Shown one piece after another: positions 35,247 to 48,128 of a stretch of 64,000 bases of DNA; the stretch's first letter is position 1; each line of letters starts with the position of its first letter. Source of the stretch: an uncultured Gammaproteobacteria bacterium (GTDB taxonomy: Bacteria > Pseudomonadota > Gammaproteobacteria > DRLM01); the NCBI GenBank assembly GCA_947259075.1, contig CAMYKQ010000057.1, forward strand, positions 135,246 through 199,245, in the 5' to 3' direction. Both the position numbers and the translations under genes were made by a program. The notes under the pieces were generated by a model. The model saw only the letters and a program-made list of their open reading frames with translations, ran no database searches and was not told the origin of the DNA.

Positions 35247-35516
35247 TTACTCGACTATGAAATCCGGCAATGGTTCCACTTCCACGAGCATGCAGGTCAC
35301 ATCGCTCACTCGCGCCCGCGGCGGGCCTTGCCACAACCAAGCGCAAAACGCATCGACCGCGCCTTGCTCACCGCAGCTCAATACCTCCACCCGGCCATCG
35401 GCAAGATTGCGGGCATAACCGCCCACGCCCAGCTCGCGCGCCTTGCCTTGCGCCGAAGCGCGATAAAATACCCCCTGCACCTGACCCGACACAAAGCACC
35501 GCTTACACACCACCAT
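35247..35516 (-). CDS. acylphosphatase
   Basis: VSGQVQGVFYRASAQ...ELGVGGYARNLADGRVEVL matches the acylphosphatase signatures. Confidence 0.8.
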   Translation of the reverse strand: MVVCKRCFVSGQVQGVFYRASAQGKARELGVGGYARNLADGRVEVLSCGEQGAVDAFCAWLWQGPPRARVSDVTCMLVEVEPLPDFIVE

Positions 35517-35558
35517 GATGTCTCCTCGCCGCGAAAAGTGAGCGTACGGAGAAACACC

Positions 35559-36317
35559 TTAATCAAGCTCGGCGCGCCACGCAAGATCACCGAGCCACGT
35601 GCCGTGATGGATAGACGTGACTGAACCGGCAACGGCAAGGGCGCCGGTGTAGGCGTCCTCCGTTTCCAAATCATGCAAACTCCATTGCGCTTGCATCCCG
35701 CATGCCGCGGCGCGCGCCCGCGCGCCGCTGACATCTACTTCCGTCAACCTCCGCGCCAAACCCATCCCCGTGGCTTTCAGCAAGGCCTCTTTTCTTGTCC
35801 AGTAACGCATCAACGCCCGCAAGCGCAGCGGCGGCGGCAGCGTCCGCCACACCGCGCGTTCACGCGGCGTGCAAATTCGCCGCGCCAGCGTCTCCAAATC
35901 CATCGCATCGTTCAACTGTTCGATGTCGGCACCGATATCACCAACCCGCGTCACCGCCAGCAGCATCCGCTCGCCACTGTGCGCCAGATTGAAATATAAG
36001 GGCGAGTCATCCGCGTCCATCGCTAAGGCGGGTTTGCCCCTGGGACCGTAAATGAAACGCAAACTCCCGCCGTGCCGCCCTAAATAACGGCCTAAGATCT
36101 CACGCACGATGCCACGGCCCGCCACGAAGTCCGCGGATTGCTGCGGATGATTGAAGCGCGCGGCACGCAAACGCTCATCCTCGCTGAGCAAGGCGTCAAA
36201 ATAGGCGCCGCGCACCGCCGCGCGGCGCAAATTACTAAACCAGACATGCACCTCACCCTCGGAACAGTGCAAATTCATCCCGGGAAATAAGGCGGCGCCG
36301 CGCGCGTGCTCAAGCAT
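35559..36317 (-). CDS. 4'-phosphopantetheinyl transferase (Sfp/EntD type)
   Basis: FNLAHSG motif and W/KEAxxK motif (WTRKEALLKATG). Start codon uncertain (36317 or 36278). Confidence 0.8.
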   Translation of the reverse strand: MLEHARGAALFPGMNLHCSEGEVHVWFSNLRRAAVRGAYFDALLSEDERLRAARFNHPQQSADFVAGRGIVREILGRYLGRHGGSLRFIYGPRGKPALAMDADDSPLYFNLAHSGERMLLAVTRVGDIGADIEQLNDAMDLETLARRICTPRERAVWRTLPPPLRLRALMRYWTRKEALLKATGMGLARRLTEVDVSGARARAAACGMQAQWSLHDLETEDAYTGALAVAGSVTSIHHGTWLGDLAWRAELD

Positions 36318-45018: not shown

Positions 45019-47343
45019 TTACAGCGTGGCCGAGATAGCCGTAGGTTTGGGCGCCAGATCGCGCTTGGCATCCAGCTTCATCAGCAGCGGTGGCAGCAAG
45101 AGGAAGTCGAGCAGCAAGGCCAAGACCACGGTCACCGCCGACAAAATGCCGATCACTGAGTTGACTTGGAATGTCGAGAAGGCCAAGACGATGAAGCCCG
45201 CGCACAGGACCACCGAGGTCACCACCATGGCGTAGCCCACGGTGTTGAAGGCGTAGCGCACCGCGTCTTCCGGCGACAGGCCGCGCTCGCGGCGGGCCCG
45301 CAGATATTTGCTGATGAAATGAATGGTGTCGTCGACGACGATGCCCAAGGTCATGGCGGTGATCACCGAGGCGGCGAGACCGATGCGGCCCACCAGCAGG
45401 CCCCAGAGTCCAAAGGCCAGCACCGCGGGCAGCATATTCGGCAGCATGCTGAACAAGCCCCATTTGAACGAGCGCAGCGCGATGATCAAGGTCAGACTGA
45501 TGAGCAGCGCGCCAAAGGCCGTGCCCTTGAGCATGCTGGCGATATTACGCTCGGCGATGTGACCGAACATCACGGTCCAGCCCACGCCCGGGGCCCGCAT
45601 GGTGCTGGGCACGTGGGCGTGTTGCCAATCGCGGGCCCGCTGCTCCAGCGCCAGCATCTCGTTATTGCTGATGACCTTCAACAGCACGGTCATGCGTGAA
45701 GCCGACTTGTCGAGATTGATCTGATTATTGAGATCAAGACCGAAGGGCAGCGACAATTCATAGAGCAACAAATATTGCGCGGCCAGTTCGCGTTCTTGCG
45801 GCAAGCGGTAAAAATCCTGGTCGTCGCCGTGCATATTTTTGTTGAGACGCTTCATCACGTCGGTGAAGACATTGACGTGCATCACTTCCGGCTGGGAGCG
45901 ATACCAGTCGGCGAAGTCTTGCAAGGCTTGCAGGTAGCTGGGGTCGGCCACCGCACCTGGCGCACCGGCGGGCAGGGAGTATTCGATGAGCGAGACGCCG
46001 GTGAGGTGCTCAGTGGTGAAGTCCGTGGCCTGGCGCACCGCGACTTGCTTGTCGAAGTACTTGACGAAATCGTCGTTGAGTTCGTTGTTGGGCACGAAGG
46101 CGAGCAGGCCCAGCGACACCGCCATGGAAGCCCACAGCAACACGCCGCGGCGGCGCACGACGAAATCACCGAAGCGCGCGGCCAGCTTGCCGCCATCCGC
46201 CGCAAGCGCCTTGCCCGGCTTGACCGGCAACAGGGAGATCAATGCGGGCAGGAAGGTGAGCGACAACAGCCAAGCCGCGAGCACGCCGACGGTGACGACA
46301 TTACCGAGGTCGCGGAACGGCGGCGAGTCGCTGAAGTTCATGCTGAGAAAACCCACCGCCGTGGTCAGCGAGGTGAGGAACACCGGCTGCATATTGATGC
46401 GTAAGGCCTCGGTGATGGCGCTGAGTTTTTCCTTGCCTTCATCGCGCATGAGGTGCATGAAGCTCACCAAGATATGCACGCAATCCGCCACGGCCACGGT
46501 GAGGATGATGATGGGCGCCGACGCCGACGCCGGTGACAGCTTGATGCCCAGCCAGCCCGCCACGCCCATGGCGCTGAGTATGGACATCAGCAATACGCTC
46601 ACGGTCGCGAAGGTGGCGGGGCCGGAGCGCAGGAACAACCACAAGCCGGCGATCACCAGCACGAACATCAGCGGAATGAGGCTGCCCATGTCACGCTCCG
46701 AGGCCTCGGGGAAGGCGTTGTTCATCATCACGATGCCGGTGATGTGAATATCGAGCTCGGGATGGGCCGCGCCGATCTTCTCCGCCATGGCACGCGCGGC
46801 CAGCGCCACCTCGCGGGTCTCTTGATCGGGATTGGCATTGGGCAGGTGCAGGGTGACGTTGACGCCGGTCACCTTGCCGTCAACGGACACCAGGCGCTGA
46901 CGCAGCGCGGGCTCATTGACGGCGATGTCATGCGCCTGTTGCAGCGCGGCGTCGCTGAGCGCCGTGGCCTCGGGCACCAGATCCGCTACCACCAAGGTAT
47001 CACCCTCGGCGTAGGAGTGCTGAAAGTTAGTGATGGAATCCACCCGCTGCGCGTAAGGCAGCTGCCAGGCGGCGCTGGTGAACTGCTGCACCACGGCCAG
47101 GCTGGCACGGGTGAAGACCCGCCCGTCCTTGGGCGCGATCACGAACAGCACATTGTCGCTGCGGCTGTAGGCGTCTTGCAGGGCCTCGGCCGCGACGAGT
47201 TGCGGATCATCCTTGTTGAAGTAGATGCGGTAGTCGGCGGTCTGCTCCAGTTTGGCCAAACCCGCCGCGGCCACGATCACCAGCGCCAAGGTAACGGCGA
47301 TGATGCGGCGGGGGTGGTGAACAATCCATTGCATGAGTTTCAT
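45019..47343 (-). CDS. MMPL/RND-superfamily lipid exporter (MmpL/HpnN-like)
   Basis: 774 aa. Two 6-TM bundles with two large periplasmic loops. MMPL-family collinearity. Confidence 0.85.
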   Translation of the reverse strand: MKLMQWIVHHPRRIIAVTLALVIVAAAGLAKLEQTADYRIYFNKDDPQLVAAEALQDAYSRSDNVLFVIAPKDGRVFTRASLAVVQQFTSAAWQLPYAQRVDSITNFQHSYAEGDTLVVADLVPEATALSDAALQQAHDIAVNEPALRQRLVSVDGKVTGVNVTLHLPNANPDQETREVALAARAMAEKIGAAHPELDIHITGIVMMNNAFPEASERDMGSLIPLMFVLVIAGLWLFLRSGPATFATVSVLLMSILSAMGVAGWLGIKLSPASASAPIIILTVAVADCVHILVSFMHLMRDEGKEKLSAITEALRINMQPVFLTSLTTAVGFLSMNFSDSPPFRDLGNVVTVGVLAAWLLSLTFLPALISLLPVKPGKALAADGGKLAARFGDFVVRRRGVLLWASMAVSLGLLAFVPNNELNDDFVKYFDKQVAVRQATDFTTEHLTGVSLIEYSLPAGAPGAVADPSYLQALQDFADWYRSQPEVMHVNVFTDVMKRLNKNMHGDDQDFYRLPQERELAAQYLLLYELSLPFGLDLNNQINLDKSASRMTVLLKVISNNEMLALEQRARDWQHAHVPSTMRAPGVGWTVMFGHIAERNIASMLKGTAFGALLISLTLIIALRSFKWGLFSMLPNMLPAVLAFGLWGLLVGRIGLAASVITAMTLGIVVDDTIHFISKYLRARRERGLSPEDAVRYAFNTVGYAMVVTSVVLCAGFIVLAFSTFQVNSVIGILSAVTVVLALLLDFLLLPPLLMKLDAKRDLAPKPTAISATL

Positions 47344-47891
47344 GTCGGTTTCGTGCTCCTCGTTAGGGTGTGCTCACTTTGCCAGCGCAAGCTCAAAGGT
47401 TCTGTGAAGTTTTGCCCTGGCTGGTGTGAAAAATTACCGGTTTCTTCTCCGGTTAGAAATTATCCAGTGGTGGGTATACCAGGGCATACCAAAGTAGGTG
47501 GTGAAAGCCCTGGCCTCAAACCGCCAAGCCGCCGCTGCTTGCCCGGCACGGCCGCGGGCGCCCGGCCTAGACCCGCGTCGGCGGATGCCCTCTCAGGGTA
47601 GTGGACAAAGACATATCGCGCGTCAGCAAGGCCGAAACGGCGGGACGATTCAGCTAAGGAATCTCTGATTTATTAGGGGTTCCGTGCGGCGCAAGGACGC
47701 GCCGCCATTTTCCATGGCGGAACGCCATTGAAAATGAAGGGAAGCGGAAATCGAATTTTTCGCTTGCCGTGCTCTGAGAATTCATGGAATTATTCAGAGC
47801 TTCCTTAAGAAAAATTGTAACGCGTTAATTCACGCCTTGCGGGTGGGAAGTTAACCGTACCGCGGCCTCGGCCATGATGGAGGAATTGAAA

Positions 47892-48128
47892 ATGATACCG
47901 GACGAACAGGAAGACACGCGGCAGTACACCGTGGTCATCAACCACGAGGAGCAGTACTCGATCTGGCCCGCCGACCGCGAGCTGCCCCTGGGCTGGACCG
48001 CCGTCGGCAAGACGGGCTCCAAGCAGGCATGCCTGGATTACATCGAGGAAGTCTGGAGCGACATGCGCCCGCTAAGCCTACGGAAGAGGATGGAAGAGGA
48101 CGCCGCCCGCGACCAGCAAGGCAATTAA
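47892..48128 (+). CDS. MbtH-like protein
   Basis: GGAGGA RBS 7 nt upstream. [44 protein letters not shown] is the MbtH signature with three Trp. Confidence 0.85.

Follow-up and report, generated by a model that had tools for sequence, protein, structure and literature searches.

Gene Content of the Locus

We analysed a 64,000-nucleotide (nt) window of DNA from an uncultured Gammaproteobacteria bacterium (DRLM01; assembly GCA_947259075.1, contig CAMYKQ010000057.1). The subject of this study is a block of eight minus-strand genes in this window, encoding an MMPL exporter, a fatty acyl-AMP ligase (FAAL), a flavoenzyme of the acyl-CoA dehydrogenase (ACAD) family, a free-standing acyl carrier protein (ACP), a single-module nonribosomal peptide synthetase (NRPS), an SRPBCC protein, a 4'-phosphopantetheinyl transferase (PPTase), and an acylphosphatase (AcyP). 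A gene for an MbtH-like protein is transcribed divergently from them (Table 1). By its predicted gene content, the locus is an environmental member of the cluster type known from Acinetobacter as A1S_0112-A1S_0119, with a reduced accessory set. We propose, with a probability of about 0.7, that it is an operon of this Acinetobacter type for making and exporting a small lipo-amino acid, the likeliest product being an N-acyl-glycine with its fatty chain oxidised at C2/C3.

An earlier reading made from the letters of the DNA alone (the sequence-only reading) had placed nine open reading frames (ORFs) here and assigned domains to each. All nine were recovered from the ORF list at the same positions, and Pfam confirmed the expected domain in every protein, including the FAAL, ACAD, ACP, and NRPS calls. 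The parts by which that reading had recognised a lipo-amino-acid cluster, namely FAAL, free ACP, ACAD flavoenzyme, MMPL, and one module of condensation (C), adenylation (A), thiolation (T), and thioesterase (TE) domains, were all present. Every ORF was intact, and the catalytic motifs were in place (HHxxxD, GGHSL, the Cys/Asp/His triad, and the ACP Ser). In NCBIfam, no equivalog model scored above its cutoff for any biosynthetic protein, and PRK05691 (PvdL-like) was matched by both the FAAL and the C-A-T part of the NRPS.

The close packing described earlier was also found. The seven junctions from AcyP to MMPL were 42, -8, 44, 9, -32, 3, and 33 nt, i.e., neighbouring genes overlap or lie 44 nt or less apart. 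The ORF list gave longer spans for ACP (40905-41354) and MbtH (47874-48128) before start choice. The shorter starts of the sequence-only reading, 41333 and 47892, are better choices because good ribosome-binding sites precede both, AAAGGAGG in the case of ACP and GGAGGAA in the case of MbtH. With the ACP start at 41333, the ACP/ACAD junction on the MMPL side of the NRPS becomes -11 nt instead of -32 nt. MMPL and MbtH are separated by 530 nt if the first ATG is taken as the MbtH start, or by 548 nt with the start at 47892. The eight minus-strand genes are predicted to be, most likely, one operon. The block is not a chance arrangement, since independent loci share its gene order (L001, L080, L081/L082, L087, L090/L091, and L151; L-numbers denote the comparison loci that we fetched, among which L085 and L086 are from A. 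baumannii).

Table 1. Features of the locus, with positions in the 64,000-nt window.
Feature	Position (nt)	Strand	Basis
MMPL / HAE3-type RND inner-membrane exporter, 774 aa	45019..47343	-	Pfam MMPL 1.1e-34; first gene of the predicted operon
Fatty acyl-AMP ligase (FAAL), 582 aa	43237..44985	-	AMP-binding + DIP2-like C-terminal domain (4e-66)
Two-domain ACAD-family flavoenzyme, 636 aa	41323..43233	-	Three ACAD Pfam domains, residues 67-417
(AQD)n-encoding perfect in-frame 9-bp x 8 tandem repeat, ACAD N-terminal region	43133..43204	-	TRF: period 9, 8.0 copies, 100% matches
Free-standing ACP, 142 aa, Ser54 in LDSI	40905..41333	-	PP-binding 6.8e-17
Single-module NRPS, C-A(predicted Gly)-T-TE(Cys), 1360 aa	36813..40895	-	Condensation + AMP-binding + PP-binding + Thioesterase
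SRPBCC / START-like protein, 152 aa	36310..36768	-	Polyketide_cyc2 5e-15
Sfp/HetI-type 4'-phosphopantetheinyl transferase, 252 aa	35559..36317	-	ACPS 1.5e-17
Acylphosphatase, 89 aa	35247..35516	-	Acylphosphatase 3.6e-22; NCBIfam PRK14451 above cutoff
Divergent intergenic region, presumed operon promoter	47344..47891	.	Position between MMPL and MbtH
MbtH-like protein, 78 aa	47892..48128	+	PF03621 9.8e-25

A Described Counterpart in Acinetobacter baumannii

The closest solved structure to the NRPS was AB3403 (ABBFA_003403; 4ZXH/4ZXI), which aligned over residues 31-1345 with 1030 bits. Its C-domain sequence, taken from the structure alignment, led to an A. baumannii protein and from there to the surrounding locus (L085). 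In this locus, abaI/abaM/abaR are followed by genes for a FAAL (629 aa), an ACAD (597 aa), an ACP (86 aa), the NRPS, an SRPBCC-MMPL-DUF1329 fusion of 1216 aa in a single uninterrupted ORF, a DUF1302 protein, an epimerase + alpha/beta-hydrolase protein, and a PPTase. This locus is the A1S_0112-A1S_0119 operon of A. baumannii and A. nosocomialis, also numbered ABBFA_003406-003399. It is polycistronic and activated by AbaI-dependent quorum sensing; it is required for surface motility, pellicle, biofilm, and virulence, and is needed for a 505-Da metabolite, acinetin 505 (Ac-505) (PMC5376624; PMC4457973). The sequence-only reading had held that the arrangement lacks a described counterpart in Gammaproteobacteria, a claim that has to be given up, as A. 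baumannii has the same core gene for gene (PMC5376624). A 2023 review describes the AB3403 pathway as uncharacterised and its product as undefined (PMC10510592). In our literature search, we found no later structure for Ac-505 and no paper on this cluster outside Acinetobacter.

Both systems are compact co-directional operons, and they share a FAAL, an ACAD of about 600 aa with the motif FDGS and a C-terminal domain, a free ACP, a C-A-T-TE enzyme with a glycine code and a Cys TE, SRPBCC, MMPL, and an Sfp-type PPTase. However, identity is only 24-49%: FAAL 40%, ACAD 38% (end to end), ACP 44%, C domain 31%, A-T-TE 49%, SRPBCC 40% (to the N-terminal domain of the fusion), MMPL 24% (760 aa aligned with the MMPL portion of the A1S_0116-type fusion), and PPTase 28%. 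The MMPL gene comes first in the window and after the NRPS in Acinetobacter, and SRPBCC and MMPL are separate in the former and fused in the latter. The LolA-like/DUF1329 domain, the DUF1302 barrel, the A1S_0118 epimerase + alpha/beta-hydrolase, and abaI/abaM/abaR occur only in Acinetobacter, whereas AcyP and a nearby MbtH gene occur only in the window. The hosts differ as well, that of the window being an uncultured environmental gammaproteobacterium.

A separate observation concerns A. baumannii itself. At L085 10001-13960, and also in L086, the reading frame of the AB3403-type NRPS is interrupted by a stop codon after residue 611 (...LEQVR-stop-TLAFGD...). The truncated product belongs to a 90% cluster of 176 sequences; such a nonsense allele in the motility/biofilm NRPS thus seems common in some lineage.

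Relatives and Distribution

When one genome per species was scanned with the NRPS, the sole close relative was L001, an uncultured Gammaproteobacteria metagenome-assembled genome (MFD03066.bin.1.24), at 79% identity. The rest reached at most 46%; most were generic NRPS modules (36-46% identity) that lacked the accessory genes, and L001 alone was informative. It contains the complete block, its flanking genes (ProS, NadC, DUF11, and an ACP-AMP-acyltransferase gene) are those of the window, and amino-acid conservation between the two is high. The order MMPL-FAAL-ACAD-ACP-NRPS-SRPBCC was also found in L080, L081/L082, and L087. In L080, it is accompanied by PPTase, AcyP, and ProS as in the window; the eight-gene block including AcyP and PPTase is thus kept in L001 and L080. 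The L087 contig looks cyanobacterial because it carries XisH/XisI. The cluster is rare and patchy.

When the ACAD was the query, a few metagenomic relatives (55-81%) headed the matches, followed by hundreds of cyanobacterial ACADs of about 600 aa at about 50%. Some of these lie in a second arrangement, FAAL-ACAD-ACP-MBOAT with no NRPS, as in Leptolyngbya PCC 6406 (L083), Anabaena azotica (L089), and L088. The same trio is present there, and its ACADs are closer to that of the window than the Acinetobacter enzyme is. This cassette has no NRPS, SRPBCC, or MMPL, and its acyl-ACP is presumably passed to the MBOAT acyltransferase. The cassettes are located at L083 8090-16689, L089 8152-18024, and L088 2897-12915, and contain FAAL, the 600-aa ACAD, ACP, MBOAT, a protein of about 310 aa, and a DCC1-like protein, in some cases with a Pyr_redox protein as well. 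Our literature search found no paper on this cyanobacterial cassette.

The NRPS Module Is Predicted to Use Glycine

The A domain was aligned to GrsA-PheA, which gave the specificity code DILQLGMVWK, a glycine-type code. It differs by conservative changes from DILQLGLIWK, the classical glycine code. The form DILQLG(M/L/V)(V/I)WK was common to the window, L001, L080, L081, L087, L090, and A. baumannii, the last having DILQLGVVWK. AB3403 was crystallised with AMP and glycine, "a representative substrate" (PMC10510592). The specificity code and the glycine-bound homologue structure thus support the prediction that the A domain activates glycine, an assignment that rests on the 2023 review (PMC10510592) and our own code extraction. 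Other loci with the same type of C domain had Ser-like, Thr-like, or other codes; therefore, the Gly code tracks the single-module clusters that contain the ACAD.

The TE domain has Cys1169 instead of Ser in its nucleophile elbow, GWCFGG (nt 37380-37397), with the Asp in MFDTRA (nt 37299-37316) and the His in GDHNS (nt 36903-36917). GWCFGG with its Cys nucleophile was found in 9/9 ACAD-containing clusters and is identical in the window, L001, L080, L081, L087, L090, L151, and A. baumannii, whereas the TE domains of ACAD-less loci were a mix of Ser and Cys. Cys thioesterases are "less common", and one is essential for beta-lactone release of obafluorin (PMC6668435). ObiF, the obafluorin enzyme, resembles the window NRPS in being a single C-A-T-TE module that is fed by a free-standing loading system and has a catalytic Cys TE (PMC6668435). 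However, ObiF is only a weak sequence match (52 bits, C domain), and the triad Asp of the window enzyme is placed as in EntF and AB3403, not as in ObiF (PMC6668435). ObiF also needs a beta-hydroxy amino acid. Since glycine has no beta-hydroxy group, beta-lactone release would be unavailable to the window TE; the lactone through an amino-acid side chain that the sequence-only reading had allowed is likewise excluded if glycine is the amino acid, as predicted.

Sister single-module C-A-T-TE enzymes with a Cys TE were seen in L146 (10001-19000), L158 (4864-15800), L130, and L141. Their codes are of the Thr type (DFWNIGMVHK) or the Ser type (DVWHISLIDK). Downstream of the NRPS gene in L146 and L158 lie MMPL, LolA-like, and barrel genes, and no FAAL or ACAD was detected nearby. 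A beta-hydroxy amino acid together with a Cys thioesterase is the recipe for beta-lactone release of the obafluorin type.

The C domain (residues 27-485) is the first domain of the NRPS, and its gene lies downstream of the FAAL and ACP genes. Its motif HHIAVDF is intact (nt 40404-40424), as is the GGHSL motif of the peptidyl carrier protein (PCP) domain (nt 37779-37793). The same type of C domain stands directly after FAAL and ACP genes in about 35 of 80 metagenomic loci. From this position and locus pattern it follows that the C domain would act as a lipoinitiation domain that accepts acyl-ACP. The earlier description as a starter C domain thus holds for its place in the pathway. In sequence, the exemplars of the canonical C-starter clade, RzmA and CDA-C1, scored 83 and 64 bits against 234 for AB3403 (TycC/Txo, 210-219; PvdL C1, 143).

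A FAAL, ACAD, and ACP Trio

The best PDB matches of the protein encoded at 43237..44985 were FAALs (7R7G with 591 bits, Legionella 3KXW, FadD32, FadD23, and FadD28). The protein has an insertion of about 30 aa after the A5 motif (YGLAE), which is missing from NRPS A domains, and its best NCBIfam names are FAAL families, all below their curated cutoffs. Its family membership suggests a FAAL that would load acyl-AMP onto an ACP. Among solved structures, the ACP matched 4HKG best, a type II carrier protein from A. baumannii, and 2N98 next. Elsewhere in the window (26452-29277, minus strand), a tri-domain protein of 941 aa combines an N-terminal carrier domain and a FAAL-like adenylation domain, the latter with the same insertion of about 30 aa, with an acyltransferase of the PlsC type. 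Its counterpart in L001 is syntenic, with 77% conservation, and it looks like a self-contained enzyme for fatty-acid activation and lipid acylation, separate from the operon.

The first 420 or so residues of the ACAD are those of an ordinary ACAD, and a conserved helical C-terminal domain of about 200 residues follows. In an AlphaFold2 (AF2) model (pLDDT 87), the whole chain superposed on two-domain structures of the very-long-chain acyl-CoA dehydrogenase (VLCAD) type, 3OWA and 7S7G (human VLCAD), and target-normalised TM-scores of the core against ordinary ACADs were about 0.9. Asp408 in FDGS (nt 42001-42012) occupies the position of the Glu376 base of medium-chain acyl-CoA dehydrogenase (MCAD; 'YEGT'), and FDGS did not vary among 45 family members. 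In nitroalkane oxidase, an Asp in this place serves as the base. Given this Asp, the reaction could be dehydrogenation, oxidation as by an oxidase, epoxidation, or something else, and the chemistry may differ from plain dehydrogenation. The most likely and simplest substrate would be acyl-ACP, because the FAAL-ACAD-ACP trio is kept without any NRPS in the cyanobacterial MBOAT-type loci.

The N-terminal region of the ACAD contains the (AQD)n repeat listed in Table 1. It is missing from all ACAD orthologues, including that of the 79% relative L001. Slippage at 43133-43204 could alter its length.

The sequence-only reading had drawn a parallel with the mycobactin mbt-2 system. In mbt-2, a FAAL (MbtM/FadD33) loads a dedicated ACP (MbtL), and the ACAD-family enzyme MbtN/FadE14 desaturates the acyl-ACP. 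MbtN is an ACAD of about 390 aa with a Glu base. This logic of FAAL, ACP, and ACAD stands as an analogy, not as membership. In contrast to MbtN, the window ACAD has 636 aa, the extra domain of the VLCAD type, and Asp408. The window FAAL scored 220 bits with the MbtM equivalog model, whose cutoff is 621. The acyl chain would go to an NRPS C domain in the window, whereas that of mycobactin goes to a lysine N6-acyltransferase, and Pfam found no MbtK-type acyltransferase in the eight-gene block. A second analogy is provided by lipopeptide pathways. HxcO of the calcium-dependent antibiotic (CDA) pathway desaturates and epoxidises hexanoyl-ACP, and LipB acts in friulimicin. The window would resemble them in that a flavoenzyme oxidises the carrier-bound alpha,beta position before a C domain attaches the chain. 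They differ in feeding multi-module NRPSs in actinomycetes.

The Published Data on Acinetin 505

The formula of Ac-505 is C23H43N3O7S, and its fragmentation shows losses of Cys-Gly and glycine, with ions at m/z 310.2 (C18H32NO3+) and 235.2 (C16H27O+) (PMC5376624). Formula arithmetic on these data shows that Ac-505 minus Cys-Gly is C18H33NO4, i.e., N-palmitoylglycine -2H +O, and that the two ions correspond to protonated N-(hexadecadienoyl)glycine and its acylium ion. Ac-505 thus fits a thiol adduct of an N-(2,3-epoxy- or hydroxy-enoyl-C16)glycine, and such an adduct with the thiol of Cys-Gly would be accounted for if the product were a 2,3-epoxy or enoyl compound. The authors themselves suggest that the thiol part originates from glutathione (PMC5376624). 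Reading Ac-505 as an N-(oxidised C16)glycine agrees with the product expected from a FAAL, an ACAD, and a C-A(Gly)-T-TE enzyme.

Genes Proposed for Export

The best NCBIfam match of the MMPL protein was TIGR00921 (HAE3). In L001, L080, L081, L087, L090, and L151, as in the window, MMPL is the first gene of the block and SRPBCC is a separate gene after the NRPS. The fusion of SRPBCC to MMPL in Acinetobacter points to a role in export: SRPBCC would bind lipid as a partner of the pump and would not be a cyclase. In L081 and L087, the cluster is followed by a LolA-like TP_0789/DUF1329 gene and a DUF1302-barrel-like gene of about 390-400 aa, which suggests passage of the product to the outer membrane in these relatives. 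Both genes are missing from the window, L001, and L080, which carry PPTase and AcyP instead. A tblastn search of the window with the outer-envelope proteins of Acinetobacter, L081, and L087 and with A1S_0118 gave no match.

Accessory Genes, Control Region, and Surroundings

The best NCBIfam match of the PPTase was HetI (193 bits, below cutoff), and its gene overlaps that of SRPBCC by 8 nt. A PPTase gene is present in L001, L080, and A. baumannii and missing from L081, L087, L090, and L151. AcyP, which follows the PPTase after a 42-nt gap with a GAGGAG ribosome-binding site, is kept only in the closest lineage (L001 and L080). This conservation is uninformative on membership, because the flanking ProS gene is syntenic there too. 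AcyP is probably co-transcribed with the operon and may belong to it functionally.

The MbtH protein is intact and has the signature NxExQxSxWP...PxGW...W(S)DxRP (motif from PMC6668435). It may serve the NRPS of the block, as no second NRPS was found in the 64-kb window, but conservation gives no support. The gene is absent from eight related clusters (L001, L080, L081, L087, L090/L091, L151, and A. baumannii), even from L001 with its 79% identity, and its place as a ninth cluster member in the sequence-only reading was rejected on these grounds. It lies at the edge of a stretch of lower GC content at about 48.0-52.5 kb (0.46-0.56 against about 0.61). Besides MbtH, this stretch (about 48000-52500) holds a cupin, a HEAT-like ORF, and an ORF of 145 aa, and L001 lacks counterparts to all of them in the interval from MMPL to the orf185 homologue. 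It looks like an insertion/deletion difference between close relatives.

A siderophore locus and quorum-sensing control as in Acinetobacter were both tried as explanations and rejected. In the intergenic region (nt 47344-47891), the best Fur box match was 11/19, the median of random 548-bp windows, and Pfam found no TonB-dependent receptor or chelating-group gene families among the window ORFs scanned. The siderophore-like character that the sequence-only reading had suggested thus falls away. The best lux box match in the same region was 11/16, not above background; homology search gave no AbaI, AbaM, or AbaR homologues in the window, and the ORFs scanned had no Autoind or LuxR Pfam domains. 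No match to the sigma-70 consensus was found inside 47344-47891. A promoter scan gave promoter-like matches at the expected number, and terminator-like matches fell inside coding sequence. Scans of the window for tRNA genes and Rfam families found nothing.

The window is core chromosome, with genes for aconitase, ClpB, ProS, NadC, PurM, PurN, Hda, and Dcd. Also encoded in the window, at 12389-17252 (minus strand), is a peptidase C25 (gingipain-like) protein of 1134 aa, next to a PEP-CTERM protein; it is unrelated to the operon.

Discussion

In this study, we found that the locus matches the A1S_0112-A1S_0119 operon in its core, and we propose the following pathway for it. The Sfp-type PPTase would convert the free ACP and the PCP of the NRPS to their holo forms. 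The FAAL, to judge from its family, would adenylate a long-chain fatty acid and load it onto the free ACP with no CoA intermediate. The ACAD, with Asp408 as the presumed base, would then oxidise the acyl-ACP at the alpha,beta position to a 2-enoyl thioester; alternatively, further oxygenation would give a 2,3-epoxy or hydroxy-enoyl thioester. For this step, the substrate is supported by comparative genomics and the chemistry is putative. The A domain would activate glycine and load it onto the PCP, as the code and the homologue structure suggest, and the N-terminal C domain, given its position and the other FAAL-ACP-C loci, would join the acyl chain of the ACP to Gly-S-PCP. The Cys-His-Asp TE would release the product, with hydrolysis to the free acid as the default mode. 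Finally, as the Acinetobacter fusion suggests, SRPBCC would bind the hydrophobic product in the cytoplasm and pass it on to MMPL for export. If the parallel with Acinetobacter extends to function, the exported compound would serve surface spreading, pellicle, or biofilm, either as a surfactant or as a signal at the cell surface.

Several points weigh against this proposal. The C domain is nearer in sequence to elongation-type domains (TycC, Txo) than to the acyl-CoA starters RzmA and CDA-C1, and the base position of the ACAD holds Asp, not Glu. The GrsA-PheA fragment used as reference for the code was validated solely by its own numbering, which reproduces D235...K517 exactly. The window has no LolA-like/DUF1302 genes, unlike Acinetobacter, L081, L087, and L090, which leaves delivery beyond the inner membrane unexplained. 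The assignment of acinetin 505 is tentative, and the product of the window is predicted from genes alone. Furthermore, the authors of the Ac-505 study proposed a C15 chain joined to a glycine-containing unit and "neither N- nor O-linked" (PMC5376624).

A further step beyond the proposed pathway is tentative, and we regard it as possible without favouring it. FAAL-ACAD(Asp)-ACP may be a portable and widely distributed module for making a reactive long-chain acyl-ACP of the 2-enoyl or 2,3-epoxy type. With a Gly module and a Cys TE, it would give an electrophilic N-acyl-glycine 'warhead' lipid, of which Ac-505 would be the glutathione-derived Cys-Gly adduct, and the same cassette would feed the cyanobacterial MBOATs. 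If this were true, the window version, which lacks both A1S_0118 and the outer-membrane parts, would yield the core compound unmodified and help to settle the Acinetobacter structure.

We next consider other explanations. The product might be a structural envelope lipid, i.e., an N-acyl-glycine lipoamino acid that MMPL flips or inserts and the envelope retains. MMPL/HAE3 pumps and SRPBCC proteins do handle envelope lipids. The LolA-like and DUF1302-type genes of the relatives suggest delivery to the outer membrane and not to the medium, and the cluster sits among housekeeping genes, syntenic with ProS in three genomes. However, Ac-505 was recovered from Acinetobacter culture supernatants (PMC5376624), and a rare, patchy cluster is unlike a core membrane-lipid pathway. 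We therefore hold this explanation to be unlikely, although it is the best of the alternatives.

The chance is smaller still that the ACAD acts on a glycine intermediate on the PCP of the NRPS, giving a dehydro- or alpha-functionalised glycine, and not on acyl-ACP. The Acinetobacter authors suggested glycyl-PCP as the ACAD substrate to explain an alpha-thio linkage (PMC5376624). PCP-bound amino-acyl dehydrogenases do exist in the ACAD family, and prolyl-PCP dehydrogenases were among the weaker matches of the window enzyme. Against this, cyanobacterial loci that lack an NRPS altogether keep the same 600-aa ACAD in tight linkage with FAAL and ACP, the architecture of the enzyme is the long-chain VLCAD type, and the fragment ions of Ac-505 agree with a C16 acylium ion from which glycine departs unmodified.

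The picture drawn by the sequence-only reading as a whole, an unprecedented cluster parallel to mbt-2 that makes a siderophore- or signal-like N-enoyl amino acid or lactone with MbtH as ninth member, has become very improbable. The FAAL, ACP, and ACAD trio and the MMPL gene on which it was built are real, and the divergent MbtH gene is intact beside the only NRPS of the window. Nevertheless, a counterpart has been described in A. baumannii (PMC5376624), and none of the eight related clusters includes MbtH. The siderophore part runs against a Fur box match at background level and the lack of receptor or chelating-group genes in the window, the mbt-2 part against the Asp-based ACAD of the VLCAD type (636 aa) and the MbtM score (220 bits, cutoff 621), and the lactone part against glycine, which has no side chain to lactonise. 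Lastly, it is hardly credible that the cluster is a cryptic or decaying remnant without a product: the in-frame NRPS stop in the A. baumannii strains L085 and L086 indicates that the pathway can be lost, but the ORFs of the window are intact with their catalytic motifs and highly conserved in L001.

The finding is no new kind of system. What the analysis adds to the Acinetobacter cluster type is the conserved Gly code, the Cys TE, the Asp-type VLCAD-like ACAD, the link between SRPBCC and MMPL, the cyanobacterial cassette without an NRPS, and a simpler interpretation of Ac-505. The Acinetobacter counterpart governs surface motility, pellicle, biofilm, and virulence in a priority pathogen, and the only published proposal for the structure of Ac-505 is biosynthetically awkward. 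The occurrence of the same core in uncultured soil Gammaproteobacteria and on a cyanobacterial-looking contig defines a minimal conserved gene set and offers simpler versions for expression. It also gives three testable points, namely that the ACAD would act on acyl-ACP, that SRPBCC would take part in export, and that the core product would be an oxidised N-acyl-glycine.

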